Shown here: positions 20,634 to 40,872 of the stretch, piece after piece
Layout: each line of letters opens with the position of its first letter
Numbering within the stretch: position 1 is the stretch's first letter
From: a virus
Taxonomy: Duplodnaviria; Caudoviricetes
DNA length: 51,496 nucleotides
Virus record (IMG/VR): IMGVR_UViG_3300021178_000015
Coordinates: 1 to 51,496 of that record
Reading direction: 5' to 3' (one strand)
The notes under the pieces: generated by a model
Databases searched by the model: none
What the model saw: the letters and a program-made list of their open reading frames with translations, nothing else
What the model was told of the DNA's origin: nothing
Position numbers and translations under genes: made by a program

Positions 20634-22416
20634 TGGCGCTTTCCTGCATCATTTGCTGTACGGCGTGTTCAAGCTGCGCCATCTGCAACAACCCTGCACG
20701 TTGGTCTTGCATGCCGCCGCTGGCTTGTACCATGTTAAGTACGGCTTGTGTCAACTGCTGTGCAACGGCGCCGATAACTTTGATATTTTCGTTGCGCTGC
20801 TTCAACACCCCAATCATGCCCTGCATCTTCTCGTGTGGAGTGGCCTGGGGCTGTGGCGGCTGCCCTAGCAGCTTTTCCGGATTGGGGAGCCGCAGGCACT
20901 TATACAGCCGCATGCGAACTTCGTCCCATTTCGTCATGGGGTCTTTCATCAACTCCATATAGATGCCGGCGAGCGCGCTGCGCTGCATTTCCGTCGCCAA
21001 CTGCGGGTCCGCGGTGACCGCCACGCCGTTGCCATCGGACGGCGAAACGCCGCTGGGCAGCATTTCGTATGCGTCGGCCATGATGACGAACATGCGAAAT
21101 TCCTGCGTAAGCATCGCCACAAGCCGACGATGTACGGCCGATTGTACTTGCCCTTGGCCATCGATGATGCCCTTGGCCATCGTCGCCGACATGGACGCCG
21201 GGGCGTTTTCCAAAAGGTTGAGCGTACCGGCCAAGCGATCGGCTAGCGTAATGATCTTGTCGAGTATCTGTACGGACGACGGCGAAACTTGTTTTATCGG
21301 GAACTGTGAAAACGTGTCGGATAGCGGACGGCCATCCGTGGGGATTACGTTAACGCGGTTGGTTTTAAGCTCGATTTTGTCGGGCAGCCCGAACGAACTA
21401 CCGCCCAGCACACCGCCATCGGATGCGGCGCTTTCCGCGGTGTCGATAATGGCAGCTAGCAGCCGGTCGGCGGAGCCTTCAACGCGGTTCAATAGCTTGC
21501 CGAAGCCCATCGGGAAGAAACCACCCTTAGGGTCCGGCAACAATCGGTACGGATAAAAGCGATGGATGGGATTGAAGAAAAGCTTTTCGTCGTCGTCGAC
21601 CACAGTTTTGCGCGACCAACGCGGCTTGATCTTGACGACTTCGGCCACGTCATCTTTCGAGATAACAACTGTCCAAGGTTCGTCTATACCGTCGCCGTCA
21701 AGATCAAGCCAACAATCGCACTCGGCAAAGTTCTTCGGTGCCTGGGGGTCTTTTTCGTCGAACACCGGTTTGTAATCAATCCAGCTATTGCGCTGGATGG
21801 CGCGCTGAATTTCGTACGGGTAGCGTTCAAATTCGTCCGTAATGCGCGGGGCGCGTTCCACCGACCGGACGTTTTTGTTGATCTTGACCCGCGTGCACGG
21901 CAGCCATTCGGTGGCGAAAGCTTTCTCCACTTCGTCAAAGCTGCGCTTGCGCCACGCGAGCCCGGTAGCTGCCATGTGCACAACTAGCGGGTCCGTGTCC
22001 AAAACCCAATTTTTGTCATTCGTACGGACTTGACTGGACACCCACGAAGCGAGCTTTTCGCCGCCTTCTTCGCTGGAACGGGCCAAGTCCGGTTCGCCTA
22101 GCAAAGCGTCCGTGGCTCGCGCGGAAAACTGGATGACTGCACCTAGCGTCAGCTCGGTAGCCGGCGGCGGTTCCTCCCCGGAGCCTTCTTGCTCGCGGTT
22201 CTGCGGTGTGGCGTTGCCGCTGTCTTCGCTGTCCAGCTTGTCAAGGTAGCCTTGGGCTTCGAGAAGCCATTCCGACATAGAGCTATCGTCAACGGCTATC
22301 AGCTCCAGAAGGTCGATTGCGAGAATGCGTCGGTCGTCTTCCGTCAACTTTTCGGCCACGTTGCCAAAGGTTTCGGGTTTCTTCAGGTCCAAATCTAAAG
22401 CTGTGATCTCGCGCAT
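20479..22416 (-). CDS. Portal protein
   Basis: 645 aa; WLDLDGDGIDEPWTVVI, GFFPMGFG, VAVTADP and a Gln-rich C-terminal coil, typical of podovirus portals. Confidence 0.85.
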   Translation of the reverse strand: MREITALDLDLKKPETFGNVAEKLTEDDRRILAIDLLELIAVDDSSMSEWLLEAQGYLDKLDSEDSGNATPQNREQEGSGEEPPPATELTLGAVIQFSARATDALLGEPDLARSSEEGGEKLASWVSSQVRTNDKNWVLDTDPLVVHMAATGLAWRKRSFDEVEKAFATEWLPCTRVKINKNVRSVERAPRITDEFERYPYEIQRAIQRNSWIDYKPVFDEKDPQAPKNFAECDCWLDLDGDGIDEPWTVVISKDDVAEVVKIKPRWSRKTVVDDDEKLFFNPIHRFYPYRLLPDPKGGFFPMGFGKLLNRVEGSADRLLAAIIDTAESAASDGGVLGGSSFGLPDKIELKTNRVNVIPTDGRPLSDTFSQFPIKQVSPSSVQILDKIITLADRLAGTLNLLENAPASMSATMAKGIIDGQGQVQSAVHRRLVAMLTQEFRMFVIMADAYEMLPSGVSPSDGNGVAVTADPQLATEMQRSALAGIYMELMKDPMTKWDEVRMRLYKCLRLPNPEKLLGQPPQPQATPHEKMQGMIGVLKQRNENIKVIGAVAQQLTQAVLNMVQASGGMQDQRAGLLQMAQLEHAVQQMMQESANVSSTIDGMVNQPGNEIAGQLPPPAPAGGGAPIPSGQASGPHDAGQSGGPS

Positions 22417-22425
22417 GGTGCCCCG

Positions 22426-22448
22426 TGTATGACAAAAGTTGTATGACA
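22426..22448. promoter_or_regulatory. Tandem TGTATGACA sites between divergent portal and capsid genes
   Basis: tgtatgaca at 22426 and 22440 (14-bp period). Confidence 0.6.
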
Positions 22449-22560
22449 GTCAAGGCCTTACCGTACACTAATTTGACGAAATCCGCAGCATCAGCTATTT
22501 TGTACCAATTCGCACGCGCCGGCCTGCAACGCCGGGGAACCATTGAAAGGGGTTATTCGC

Positions 22561-23493
22561 ATGCAGGTTATCGACAGGTCACTTCAATCGAGCCAGTATT
22601 GGCCGGGGTTGTTTGCGCTGTTCGGCATGGACTATGAACGGCTTTCGCCGATCTACAAGCAATTCTACGATCGCAAGCCGTCCGAAAAGGCGTTCGAAGA
22701 GTTCATGACGGAGCGTGCCGGCCTGGGCCTCGCCGTACAGCAGCCGGAACTAGAGCCGGTGCAGTTCGACGTTCCGAACGAAGGTTACCGCACCCAGGTC
22801 ACCCACGCGTCGTACGGGCTCGCCGTGGCGATTTCGCGCGAAGCCAAAGACGACAACCTATACGAAGACGTCGGCGGCCGGATGATGAAAGAGCTGGCGT
22901 TCTCGGCGCGGCAGACCGAAGAGTACATTGCGCATGCTCCGCTGCAAGTTGCGTTCGATGCCGTCAACGGTCTGCGTGCGGACGGCGTGCCGGTTTGCTC
23001 GCCTTCGCATCCGACCGCGGTCGGCCTCCAGTCCAATCAGCTCATTTCCGCCAACGCGTCGGAATTGGCTTTCGAGAACGCGGTTATCCAGATCGCGTAC
23101 ACCCGCAACGGCCGCGGCTTCGTCGTCAACGTGCTACCCAAGCGCGTCATCACGTCAACCGAGAACGGGCCAGAAATCCGGCGCATCCTGGGTTCGCCTT
23201 TGCAGTGGAATGCACAGACGAACAATATCAACGTGCTGCGTTCGACCGGCGCGCTTCCGGAAATCGTCGAGACGCCCTACTTGGTCGATAAGGACAACTA
23301 TTTCGTCCAGACTTCTGAGCAGGACAAAGACAACGGGCAGGGCTTCACCTTCTGGGAACGTTCCTCGCTCGAAACTCGCGAAGACAGCAATTGGAGCAAT
23401 CAGGCATCCCTGATCGCGATTTGGTTCCGCTGTGCCGCGTCTGTGGTCGATTTCCGAACCGTGTACGGTTCGGCCGGTTCCGACAACCTGTAA
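22561..23493 (+). CDS. Major capsid protein
   Basis: PGLFALFGMDY...SEKAFEE...YGLAVAISREAKDDNLY...ADGVPVCSPSHP...YGSAG pattern of the gpT/HTVC010P-type capsid. Confidence 0.9.
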   Translation: MQVIDRSLQSSQYWPGLFALFGMDYERLSPIYKQFYDRKPSEKAFEEFMTERAGLGLAVQQPELEPVQFDVPNEGYRTQVTHASYGLAVAISREAKDDNLYEDVGGRMMKELAFSARQTEEYIAHAPLQVAFDAVNGLRADGVPVCSPSHPTAVGLQSNQLISANASELAFENAVIQIAYTRNGRGFVVNVLPKRVITSTENGPEIRRILGSPLQWNAQTNNINVLRSTGALPEIVETPYLVDKDNYFVQTSEQDKDNGQGFTFWERSSLETREDSNWSNQASLIAIWFRCAASVVDFRTVYGSAGSDNL

Positions 23494-23496
23494 GGG

Positions 23497-23525
23497 TTGA
23501 CGCCCGCTTCGGAGTAGCGTACGTA
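23497..23525 (+). promoter_or_regulatory. Sigma70-type promoter for the downstream sRNA
   Basis: TTGACG-17 nt-TACGTA directly after the capsid stop codon. Confidence 0.55.
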
Positions 23526-23529
23526 TCGC

Positions 23530-23600
23530 GTGCCCTCCTTGGGCGTTTCCTCCCAGACTTACGGCCCCGGTACTGACAAGCCCCGGGGCCGTCTTTCTGT
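23530..23600 (+). ncRNA. mmgR: SuhB/MmgR (alpha-r8)-like small RNA
   Basis: CCCTCCTTGGGCGTTTCCTCCCAGACTT followed by a GC hairpin (23561-23570/23583-23592) and T-rich tail; matches the recalled Rhizobiales SuhB/MmgR architecture; no covariance search was run. Confidence 0.7.
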
Positions 23601-24500
23601 CTACGCGGCCTTCGCCATCGGCGGCAGCCAATCGGGCGGTGCCGGCAATTCTTCCCCAGGAGCCAAACGCGCGTTAGCCGGCCGGCGAAAGTCGATTACC
23701 GACAGCAACGCCCGCCCCGCCTCTTCTGCCTTCGGCCTGGGGCCTACCGAGCGCGCGGCCATGTCGATACGCGGCCAACCCAGGTCAAGCAACCGGCGGG
23801 CGTGGTCGCGAAACGCAGGGTAGTTGTGTACGAGCCACACAAAGCCAAGCGTTGCGTGTTCCGTTACCAACGCATTCGGCGGCGCCAGTGTGGCAATCAT
23901 TTCCAGCGCCGTCACAAGCTCGCCCGGCGGCACGGGGGTTGCTCGCTTGGCATAGCTTGCACTGCCGTGACCATACAGCGATTTCAGCGCGCCGACGCAA
24001 GCGAGCTTCGGCACGGAAAATTCGTCACGTTGATTGTTGGCGTCCACAACGGCCAAACCGGCATTCTGTACGAGCCGATTGAGCTGCACGGCACTTTCAT
24101 CGCCGGCTGCAACTTCCGCCATGAACAGCATGGTTTGCGGCACTTTCCGCATTTTGGTATTGCGCGAAAGAAAAATCTCGATTTCGCGCTTGCGGTCATG
24201 CACGTTGTAGATATCGCAGGGGACAAACAGACGCGCAGATGCCTTCGCGCCTTCCCAGCGGTGCCGCCCGTCCACGACAAACAGCGCACCGTTTTCGCGC
24301 CGTACGACCATGAGCCGGCCGAACAGTGTCAAGTCGAAAGTCTTACCGATTTCCTTCACTAGTCGTGGGTTGCGCGGCTTCATTGCTTGATACGTCGTAT
24401 CCACGTTCAACAGCCCGATCGGAACTTCGGTCGGTTCCGGTTTTTCTTCGATGACGACTATGGATTTCTGTTCCCAAGGGAACATCTTCGCGGTACTCAT
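23601..24500 (-). CDS. ParB/Srx-like nuclease-fold protein (DUF6551-like)
   Basis: LNVDTTYQ...FGRLMVVRR...VVDGRHRWEGA; own TTGACA promoter near 24569 and AAGGAG RBS. Confidence 0.7.
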   Translation of the reverse strand: MSTAKMFPWEQKSIVVIEEKPEPTEVPIGLLNVDTTYQAMKPRNPRLVKEIGKTFDLTLFGRLMVVRRENGALFVVDGRHRWEGAKASARLFVPCDIYNVHDRKREIEIFLSRNTKMRKVPQTMLFMAEVAAGDESAVQLNRLVQNAGLAVVDANNQRDEFSVPKLACVGALKSLYGHGSASYAKRATPVPPGELVTALEMIATLAPPNALVTEHATLGFVWLVHNYPAFRDHARRLLDLGWPRIDMAARSVGPRPKAEEAGRALLSVIDFRRPANARLAPGEELPAPPDWLPPMAKAA

Positions 24501-24649
24501 TTGTACGGCTCCTTTGCTAGCTGTGCCCCCTACGTGAGTACAAATACGGATGACGTGTGAATATGTCAATACCAAGCTTGACTTGCGGCGGCAAATCACC
24601 GCATGTGCGCACAACTGCACACTTCACAGTCAGGGCGGAGGGGCGCTAC

Positions 24650-24895
24650 ATGCAGGGGTACTGGTGGGCACGGACACCCGAAAATGCGCTATTTGTAGTC
24701 ATGGTTGTGGGTGAAAAAGGCTATGTTCCCGGGGTGGAAGGTGCTATAGATTTGAGCGACTTTTTCATGATCGAGCCCGTCCCATGGCCGCGACCCGCAA
24801 CCCAAAGCCAAAATTCGGTTCTGCCGTCACCTGGGGCGCGTGTTCTCGTTGCAACGCCCGGGTCAAATATTCTACCCTTTGTCGCGAGAGGCTGA
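24650..24895 (+). CDS. Hypothetical protein (MQGYWWAR...)
   Basis: GGAGG RBS; overlaps the next gene. Confidence 0.5.
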   Translation: MQGYWWARTPENALFVVMVVGEKGYVPGVEGAIDLSDFFMIEPVPWPRPATQSQNSVLPSPGARVLVATPGSNILPFVARG

Positions 24896-33274: not shown

Positions 33275-33436
33275 GTAGCGCGCTTTCTAAATCTGAGAGA
33301 GCGGGTAAAGCCCTTCGTCTGCCAGTTCGATGCACCGCGCCGGGAAACCGGAAAAATCGACGCGTTGACCGTCCCCGCTGTGTCCGGTCGACACTCTCAA
33401 AAAGGTGCCCGGGACCGAAACCCCGGGCAGTTCGTA

Positions 33437-40612: not shown

Positions 40613-40854
40613 GGTAACGCCTTTCGTAAGTACGTTGCGTCTTCAGGATAGACTATTGCGCCTAAGTCTTCGTTATAGGCGTCTGTCCAAACCACGGCAA
40701 TTGTTCCGGCTTCAATGATGGTGACGGTTCCGCGACTGGCGCCGGAACAGACGACATCACCCACGGCATACTTTGAAGACTGCGGTGCGTCGCTCCAAGG
40801 ATACACTGCTTTCCGTCCATTGTCGTCTTGCCGCATTTGCAAACCCCGTTCCAT
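40600..40854 (-). CDS. Small KOW/SH3-like protein
   Basis: KYAVGDVV...RGTVTII...VVW; ends LPWEC. Confidence 0.55.
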   Translation of the reverse strand: MERGLQMRQDDNGRKAVYPWSDAPQSSKYAVGDVVCSGASRGTVTIIEAGTIAVVWTDAYNEDLGAIVYPEDATYLRKALPWEC

Positions 40855-40872
40855 TCCTCCCAGGGGAGCATA

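Follow-up and report, generated by a model that had tools for sequence, protein, structure and literature searches.

An alpha-r8 (SuhB/MmgR)-type RNA element directly behind the capsid gene of an uncultured phage

Why would a phage carry an RNA of a conserved bacterial regulator family directly behind its capsid gene, and what could such an RNA do there? The question is raised by a gap of 107 nucleotides (nt) in the IMG/VR virus record IMGVR_UViG_3300021178_000015, which we analysed at its full length of 51,496 nt (hereafter the window; the entire record, estimated to be 98% complete) and in which, judged by gene layout, the gap extends from the stop codon of the major capsid protein gene to a convergent ParB-like gene and houses a small RNA (sRNA) element. 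An earlier interpretation of the bare letters and their open reading frames (ORFs), here called the sequence-only reading, had proposed a phage-encoded SuhB/MmgR-like anti-Shine-Dalgarno sRNA behind the capsid gene at 23497-23600, composed of a promoter, a core, a 10-base-pair (bp) hairpin and a T-rich tail. All of these components are present in the sequence, and the proposal is borne out by a full-length match to the Rfam suhB model, by the near-complete phage record in which the element lies and by the PF25209 capsid gene upstream of it.

SuhB and MmgR belong to the alpha-r8 RNAs, which are described by Vogt et al. (2025; PMC12559287) as found in all Alphaproteobacteria except the Rickettsiales and as confined to the Alphaproteobacteria. 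Their common traits, according to the same article, are a weak hairpin, a UUUCCUCCCU that stays unpaired, and a Rho-independent terminator, and this 10-mer is the element through which they work with Hfq. In Caulobacter, four TonB-dependent receptors and hppA are the alpha-r8 targets that are repressed, and the sponge CrfA switches the alpha-r8 RNAs off on carbon starvation (PMC12559287). Linkage to N-formylglutamate amidohydrolase marks the ancestral alpha-r8 copy, while the paralogues are found without it (PMC12559287). Moreover, MmgR restricts the accumulation of polyhydroxybutyrate (PHB) in Sinorhizobium meliloti according to a review (PMC7143759), and SuhB restricts PHB in Sphingopyxis and also represses thnR (bioRxiv 10.64898/2025.12.09.693200). 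The background on which the sequence-only reading had drawn, namely a UUUCCUCCC core and the limitation of PHB by MmgR, agrees with these sources (PMC7143759; PMC12559287).

The element behind the capsid gene is very probably a true member of the alpha-r8 family. An Infernal scan with the Rfam model RF00519 (suhB/MmgR, alpha-r8), which the sequence-only reading had named as the way to check its proposal, gave a full-length covariance match at 23525-23606 on the plus strand (model positions 1-77 of 77) with 50.5 bits, compared to a curated gathering score of 41 bits, and with an expectation value (E) of 1.6e-7 over the whole window. Among 14 control genomes the model matched a single one, namely Caulobacter. 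The 82-nt match folds with -38 kcal/mol (z -4.71), and none of 200 shuffles was equally stable. It has to be considered that an ordinary terminator following a C/U-rich stretch might resemble the family by chance, and the 9-mer TTTCCTCCC would permit this: it occurs once in the window and at least once in 25 of 100 shuffles, so that the motif by itself is not significant in a window of such size. The case for membership is carried not by the 9-mer but by the full-model match and by the comparative data, and a full-length match over the curated threshold, together with an architecture that is repeated across dozens of relatives and no fewer than 120 viral contigs, leaves chance resemblance with a negligible probability. 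Linkage to N-formylglutamate amidohydrolase, a mark of the ancestral copy and no requirement for membership, is absent, the neighbours being the capsid and the ParB-like genes.

The architecture follows that of the family. Past the capsid stop codon (TAA, 23491-23493, read from the sequence), a candidate sRNA promoter at 23497-23525 on the plus strand consists of a -35 box TTGACG (23497-23502) and a -10 box TACGTA (23520-23525) separated by a spacer of 17 nt, and CCCTCCTTGGGCGTTTCCTCCCAGACTT occupies 23533-23560. The weak hairpin that is expected just 5' of the core is present as P1 (GCCC-UCCUU-GGGC, 23532-23544, plus strand) in the Rfam alignment and in the folds. It is followed at 23545-23560 by the predicted single-stranded anti-Shine-Dalgarno seed GUUUCCUCCC-AGACUU (DNA letters GTTTCCTCCCAGACTT, plus strand), which is without the U that comes after CCC in the family 10-mer. 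The candidate Rho-independent terminator is a covarying hairpin at 23561-23592 (plus strand), whose arms ACGGCCCCGG (23561-23570) and CCGGGGCCGT (23583-23592) form a stem of 10 bp, nine of which are G-C, around a loop of 12 nt, and which runs into a U-rich, interrupted tail CUUUCUGUCU at 23593-23602 (plus strand; DNA CTTTCTGTCT). Tails in relatives resemble the tail in the window, e.g., GUUCUUUC and CUUCCUUU. The predicted transcript extends from about 23532 to about 23598 (67 nt), and within it UUUCCUCCC has a mean unpaired probability of 0.93.

A search of IMG/VR with the capsid protein yielded 103 confirmed relatives, of which 80 with an identity of 82-98% were kept (17 of these 80 with direct terminal repeats). 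RF00519 was run on the whole records of the 80 relatives, and the 150 nt following the capsid stop were read in 81 records including the window. Matches above the cut-off were obtained in 19 of the 80 relatives (17 of 50 and 2 of 30), all of them, by arithmetic on the match coordinates, 0-70 nt past the capsid stop, and matches at E <= 0.01 in 50 of the 80, 31 of which are weaker or truncated forms. Read by motif, the full P1 hairpin and seed lie within 150 nt of the stop in 12 of the 81 records, TTYCCTCCC outside the strict P1 pattern in 15 (some beginning just 5-20 nt past the stop), CCTCCC alone in 15, and CTCCC...ACTT plus a terminator in 11. In 42 of the 81 records CCTCCC occurs no more than 150 nt past the stop, while 17 of 1482 windows of 150 nt drawn at random from these loci contain it, an approximately 45-fold excess. 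In an RNAalifold consensus built from 12 capsid-linked copies, the seed is invariant and unpaired in all 12, and each of the four pairs of P1 is kept in 11-12 copies, with one G-U variant and one A-C mismatch. The terminator consensus comprises eight pairs, and six of them show compensatory changes among the 12 copies. Selection thus keeps the seed and P1 constant and lets the terminator stem drift, a pattern not expected of a mere terminator.

The comparative data also point to a promoter in front of the full-length copies. The T-GAC of the -35 box is invariant in all seven aligned full-length copies despite differing flanks, and the arrangement TTGAC or TAGAC, N16-17 and a TA-initial hexamer recurs in 11 unique full-length copies, the promoter pairs sitting at a similar distance from P1. 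The pair TTGACG-17-TACGTA is shared by the window and its nearest relative (L125, capsid 98% identical), and the corresponding pairs read TTGACA-17-TACACA in L172, TTGACA-16-TAATAC in L175, TAGACA-16-TAATAC in L139, where it overlaps the stop codon, TTGACA-17-TAAGTT in L161 and TTGACT-17-CATAAG in L186. In Alphaproteobacteria, sigma-70 promoters depend on a strong -35 box, and a weak -10 box is tolerated. In L125, the -10 box and P1 are set apart by a further 25 nt or so, which fold into a 5' hairpin (GTGCGG...) of the kind typical for the alpha-r8 copies of the prophage class described below; the copy in the window has lost this hairpin. Regarding RNA, a soil metatranscriptome run (X3) contains contigs of 100% identity over 22533-22831, 23041-23551 and 23583-23813, the second of which crosses the capsid stop and breaks off within the seed, and a second study (X5) contributes two capsid contigs. 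The X4 and X5 RNA runs hold small shares, and uncovered stretches such as 23552-23582 in the hairpin were given no meaning. We take these contigs as presence in RNA libraries that is compatible with read-through from the capsid gene, and as nothing further.

Several observations weigh against a dedicated, trans-acting sRNA. The family 10-mer is matched at nine of ten bases, the window reading UUUCCUCCCA with A as the tenth base because one U is missing relative to the family consensus. A simple sigma-70 consensus scan did not call the sRNA promoter, whose poor -10 box is without the final T, and a terminator scan did not call the hairpin, owing to its 12-nt loop and the interrupted T-run; both predictions are retained on comparative grounds. 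Within the 3' context of the capsid messenger RNA (mRNA), the unpaired probability of the seed falls to 0.45-0.50. The RNA contigs are unstranded and come without ends or levels, so that they cannot show a discrete small RNA, and DNA may have been carried over into the RNA libraries. Furthermore, 28 of the 81 records are without any such element, the next gene beginning immediately in many of them, and in many other relatives only CCUCCC...ACUU and a terminator are left 5-20 nt after the stop, with no space for a promoter. Being absent or stripped down in many members of the clade, the element is dispensable and perhaps sometimes a mere 3' untranslated region (UTR).

Such stripped forms (e.g., L187, L141, L146) and the records without the element would fit an element that does no more than form the 3' end of the capsid mRNA and so works in cis alone, serving termination, 3'-end protection or Hfq loading, so that the likeness to alpha-r8 would be a relic of the sequence that supplied a captured terminator and no trans-acting sRNA would matter. 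The hairpin is indeed the only terminator candidate for the capsid gene, and because this is the lone plus-strand gene amid minus-strand genes and has its own promoter-like site (TTGACG-17-TATTTT, 22473-22501, plus strand, from the consensus scan), the hairpin should also terminate the capsid mRNA; the contig running from the capsid ORF into the element likewise fits a role in cis. However, a plain terminator needs neither an invariant 16-nt single-stranded seed nor a P1 hairpin that stay fixed while the stem varies, and neither the excess of CCTCCC behind the capsid stop nor the conserved -35 box before the full-length copies would be expected of it. A role restricted to cis is rather unlikely. 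Somewhat differently, a trans-acting sRNA might be processed from the 3' UTR of the capsid mRNA, as are CpxQ and SroC, instead of being made from its own promoter. The terminator common to both transcripts, the truncated forms that leave no room for a promoter, the weak and uncalled -10 box of the window and the contig bridging ORF and sRNA are all in line with processing, and the seed is far more accessible once the RNA is freed (0.93 compared to 0.45-0.50). On the other hand, the conserved T-GAC box, which all seven aligned full-length copies have at the same distance in front of P1, argues for a dedicated promoter in the full-length forms, as do the good -35/-10 pairs in L175, L139 and L161, and we regard processing as the origin of the sRNA as a rather improbable but serious alternative. 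Own promoter and 3'-UTR processing are not mutually exclusive, and the sequence features suggest that a dedicated promoter and read-through from the capsid promoter may both supply the RNA.

Does the RNA act on the phage itself? The sequence-only reading had pointed to a 10-nt complement of the core in the translation start region of a minus-strand gene and had itself allowed for coincidence. This complement to the seed exists (CUGGGAGGAA, 40854-40863, minus strand; DNA CTGGGAGGAA) and covers codons 4-6 (Trp-Glu-Glu) of a small Cys-rich ORF with its start ATG at 40870. It is the sole complement of at least 10 nt beyond the sRNA locus in the window, and among 89 start regions it gives the best predicted duplex with -22.2 kcal/mol (mean -12.4, standard deviation 3.1). 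As a target, however, it is probably a product of chance: dinucleotide shuffles contain a mean of 0.29 such complements and at least one in 25 of 100 cases, complements of at least 8 nt are not enriched (8 observed compared to 7.1 expected), and the start regions taken together show no greater complementarity than random windows do (-12.4 compared to -13.0 kcal/mol). In addition, the nearest relative, in which the sRNA locus is present, the block is 91% identical and the ATG is the same, reads CTGGGAAGAC at the site, whereby the pairing is lost. Regulation of the phage via this start region is therefore very unlikely, and self-regulation as the main function of the RNA was rejected. As the phage genome shows no sign of a self-target, mRNAs of the host are the likely targets.

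On balance, and with confidence only a little above even, we favour the view that the phage alpha-r8 RNA is a trans-acting mimic that acts on host mRNAs. A good -35 box combined with a weak -10 box would start transcription near 23532 and give rise to an RNA of about 67 nt with a weak hairpin, an exposed GUUUCCUCCCAGACUU seed and the GC hairpin that also ends the capsid mRNA; because this terminator is common to both, the seed could also arrive at the 3' end of the capsid transcript, which is abundant late in infection. By analogy to SisA and MmgR, the RNA in its free form would bind Hfq, and its CCUCCC seed would pair with GGGAGG-type ribosome-binding regions of host mRNAs. The host alpha-r8 regulon would thereby be repressed, i.e., TonB-dependent receptors and a pyrophosphatase as in Caulobacter and the control of PHB as in Sinorhizobium and Sphingopyxis, and the phage copy would exert this repression regardless of how the host controls its own alpha-r8 RNAs. 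The infected cell would be kept in a 'carbon-replete' state, and the phage thus probably imitates the carbon-status signal of its host during infection.

The capsid gene itself (22543-23493, plus strand) was assigned by PF25209 (Phage_capsid_4; E 9.1e-10, 39.7 bits, cut-off 27); the ORF as listed begins with TTG at 22543, and the likely true start is the ATG at 22561. Its promoter-like site, 42-60 nt upstream of the capsid start, is the sole sigma-70-type site called within 22400-24800. The convergent ParB-like gene (23601-24620, minus strand; phrog_1033 ParB-like partition protein, E 8.8e-10, and a weak DUF6551 match) abuts the sRNA tail with its stop codon. On the minus strand of 23561-23603 no T-run follows the shared hairpin, so that transcription of the ParB-like gene may continue into the sRNA locus in antisense, which may yield the perfect complement of the sRNA, GGGAGGAAAC; the unstranded contig 23583-23813 is compatible with such read-through. 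In many relatives (L127-L204), the terminator is directly followed, on the strand of the capsid gene, by a gene for a conserved small protein rich in Cys (by eye ...KPKF...WGACSRCNARV...), and since this slot holds the convergent ParB-like gene in the window, the gene order there is mosaic. In L171, the first 45 nt past the capsid stop consist of about four tandem copies of an 11-nt unit (AGTCTGTAGC-like) that lie between the stop and a TTCCTCCC element. Elsewhere in the window, PHROGs identified a family-A DNA polymerase, an exonuclease, a helicase and a primase on the minus strand, and further a portal-like/head-closure protein, tail and transglycosylase proteins and an endolysin-like protein, while no integrase was found among 40 scanned ORFs and no tRNA gene in the window. 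Annotated major capsid proteins of cultured phages match the capsid of the window at 26-34% identity (tblastn), which is too distant to infer a host from them, and this inference was dropped. When 185,579 bacterial and archaeal species, each represented by one genome, were searched for capsid relatives, 52 pattern matches were obtained, none of which was confirmed, and the search thus yielded neither a prophage relative nor a host. The phage is probably a virulent member of a free, uncultured soil lineage with genomes of 50-55 kb (about 51 kb in the window).

How widespread are alpha-r8 RNAs among phages? The exact 17-nt core was found in at least 120 IMG/VR contigs, and the 120 core-bearing loci listed have 114 unique flanks between them. 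The first 50 of these 120 contigs were scanned (15 provirus, 2 with terminal repeats, 33 linear), and RF00519 matched 43 of them above the cut-off and all 50 at E <= 0.001. A same-strand upstream gene of at least 70 codons is present at 96 of the 120 listed loci; the upstream genes cluster into NusG-like antiterminators (16), phrog_3742 (6), the capsid clade of the window (3), DNA polymerase A (2), portal protein (2) and Acb2/Tad1 hairpin-domain proteins (2), the remainder consisting of other small clusters and of 56 singletons. In cultured phages, RF00519 matches Bradyrhizobium phage ppBeUSDA76-1 (OP596613, L002; 3001-3081, 62.8 bits), Microcystis phage Mwe-JY08 (PP395640, L004; 2995-3078, 62.8 bits) and Microcystis phage vB_MweS-yong2 (OM681334, L209; 1997-2077, 47.0 bits), and below the cut-off BDU-MI-1 (37.0 bits) and ppBdUSDA122-1 (32.0 bits). 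None of these five copies was annotated as RNA; two of the three above the cut-off lie under no annotated feature, and that of Mwe-JY08 overlaps a 'hypothetical protein' ORF. A search of the literature, supplements excluded, gave no paper in which alpha-r8 or MmgR is connected with phages. Lagares et al. 2016, cited by Vogt et al., reportedly discuss lateral transfer of the family.

The phage copies occupy diverse positions. A prophage class comprising the copies in L002 (3001-3081), L003 (OP596612, 2995-3093) and about 35 of the 120 listed loci L005-L124 is marked by an additional 5' hairpin (GTGCGGTAGCGCC...GCGCTATCGC) with CATAGG-like motifs in front of it and lies between a NusG-like antiterminator gene and HNH/terminase genes, as in ppBeUSDA76-1, whose copy precedes HNH/terminase genes and has many IMG/VR look-alikes with a NusG-like gene upstream; judged from this arrangement, it has the look of a late-operon leader that ends in a terminator and serves as an sRNA besides. 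In vB_MweS-yong2, the copy stands at the end of the lysis genes and faces the integrase. Compared to the copies of cultured phages, that of the window is linked to the capsid gene, in a phage without an integrase among its scanned ORFs. In L045 and L091, the copy directly follows an Acb2/Tad1 hairpin-domain gene (PF24729, E 1.1e-7). The members of this family are annotated as nucleotide sponges with an anti-defence role, and the copy there occupies an accessory or counter-defence position. In L036, a contig of 74,013 nt, a copy without a U-tail (RF00519 38.1 bits, model positions 8-62) is followed a few bases on by a tRNA-gene-like start GGTAGCTCAGTGGTAGAGC. Finally, Mwe-JY08 and vB_MweS-yong2 are recorded as infecting the cyanobacterium Microcystis, and either phages carry alpha-r8 RNAs over a wider range of bacteria or the host given in the records deserves a second look.

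The window holds a second host-type RNA. Rfam Atu_At1 (RF02496) matches at full length at 33294-33403 on the minus strand (83.6 bits, cut-off 60), where it follows closely on a terminator-like hairpin and precedes the DNA polymerase gene by 20 nt, and among 34 relatives of the clade only the nearest one carries it (88.3 bits). Akin DNA is found on plasmids of Ensifer, Rhizobium and Agrobacterium, in pRspN324b about 40 nt upstream of a GXWXG-domain gene. Instead of being an sRNA, this second RNA may act in cis as a leader, and it hints at a Rhizobiales host. The restriction of alpha-r8 to Alphaproteobacteria, as given in PMC12559287, provides a host clue for an uncultured lineage, to which the match of the second RNA to Rhizobiaceae plasmids adds. 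The alpha-r8 family itself is known, and what is new is the capsid-linked position, the graded series from full to minimal forms across the clade and the breadth of phage carriage. A faithful phage copy of a conserved host regulator with a seed and targets characterised in Caulobacter represents a directly testable case of viral riboregulator mimicry, and carriage in at least 120 viral contigs and three cultured phages, among them an inducible Bradyrhizobium prophage, makes experiments feasible. Tentatively, we put forward as possible rather than probable that a capsid-wired mimic of the host riboregulator floods late infection with its seed across the clade, that the stripped forms represent a new viral regulator and that alpha-r8 is common phage cargo. 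If this were true, the starvation regulon (TonB-dependent receptors, control of storage polymers) would be silenced, the sponge control of the host overridden and a 'feast' state locked, and superinfection would perhaps be blocked; the CCUCCC-AGACUU-terminator forms would be a new kind of viral anti-Shine-Dalgarno regulator embedded in a 3' UTR; and phages would have acquired alpha-r8 in separate events behind genes for antiterminators, portal proteins, polymerases, anti-defence proteins and capsids, the alpha-r8 genes being usable as a marker of alphaproteobacterial hosts.

Among known systems, the closest are MmgR of Sinorhizobium meliloti, SuhB of Sphingopyxis granuli TFA and SisA-D of Caulobacter crescentus, all of which share the build of the RNA in the window: a weak hairpin, an exposed UUUCCUCCC followed by AGACUU and a GC hairpin, in the window a predicted terminator, within about 70-80 nt. 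Unlike these, the RNA in the window is encoded by a phage, has no amidohydrolase neighbour and is preceded by an unrelated promoter; it also differs by a 10-mer without the last U, an interrupted U-tail and a terminator common to the capsid gene. Regulatory sRNAs derived from 3' UTRs either have an internal promoter, as do those of the DapZ/MicL type, or arise by processing, as do those of the CpxQ/SroC type. SroC is also mentioned in PMC12559287. Like such sRNAs, that of the window directly follows a stop codon and would use the terminator of an mRNA, whereas it is a captured member of a free-standing family and its candidate promoter lies after the stop and not inside the coding region. Phage sRNAs are well studied only in enterobacteria, where DicF is a phage-encoded regulatory RNA. 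AgvB and AsxR, sponges of enterobacterial phages (PMC12559287), are likewise base-pairing RNAs that are supplied by a phage and enter the Hfq network of the host. These enterobacterial phage RNAs are inventions of the phage or sponges of host sRNAs, whereas the RNA behind the capsid gene is a copy from a core host family in which the seed of the host is kept.

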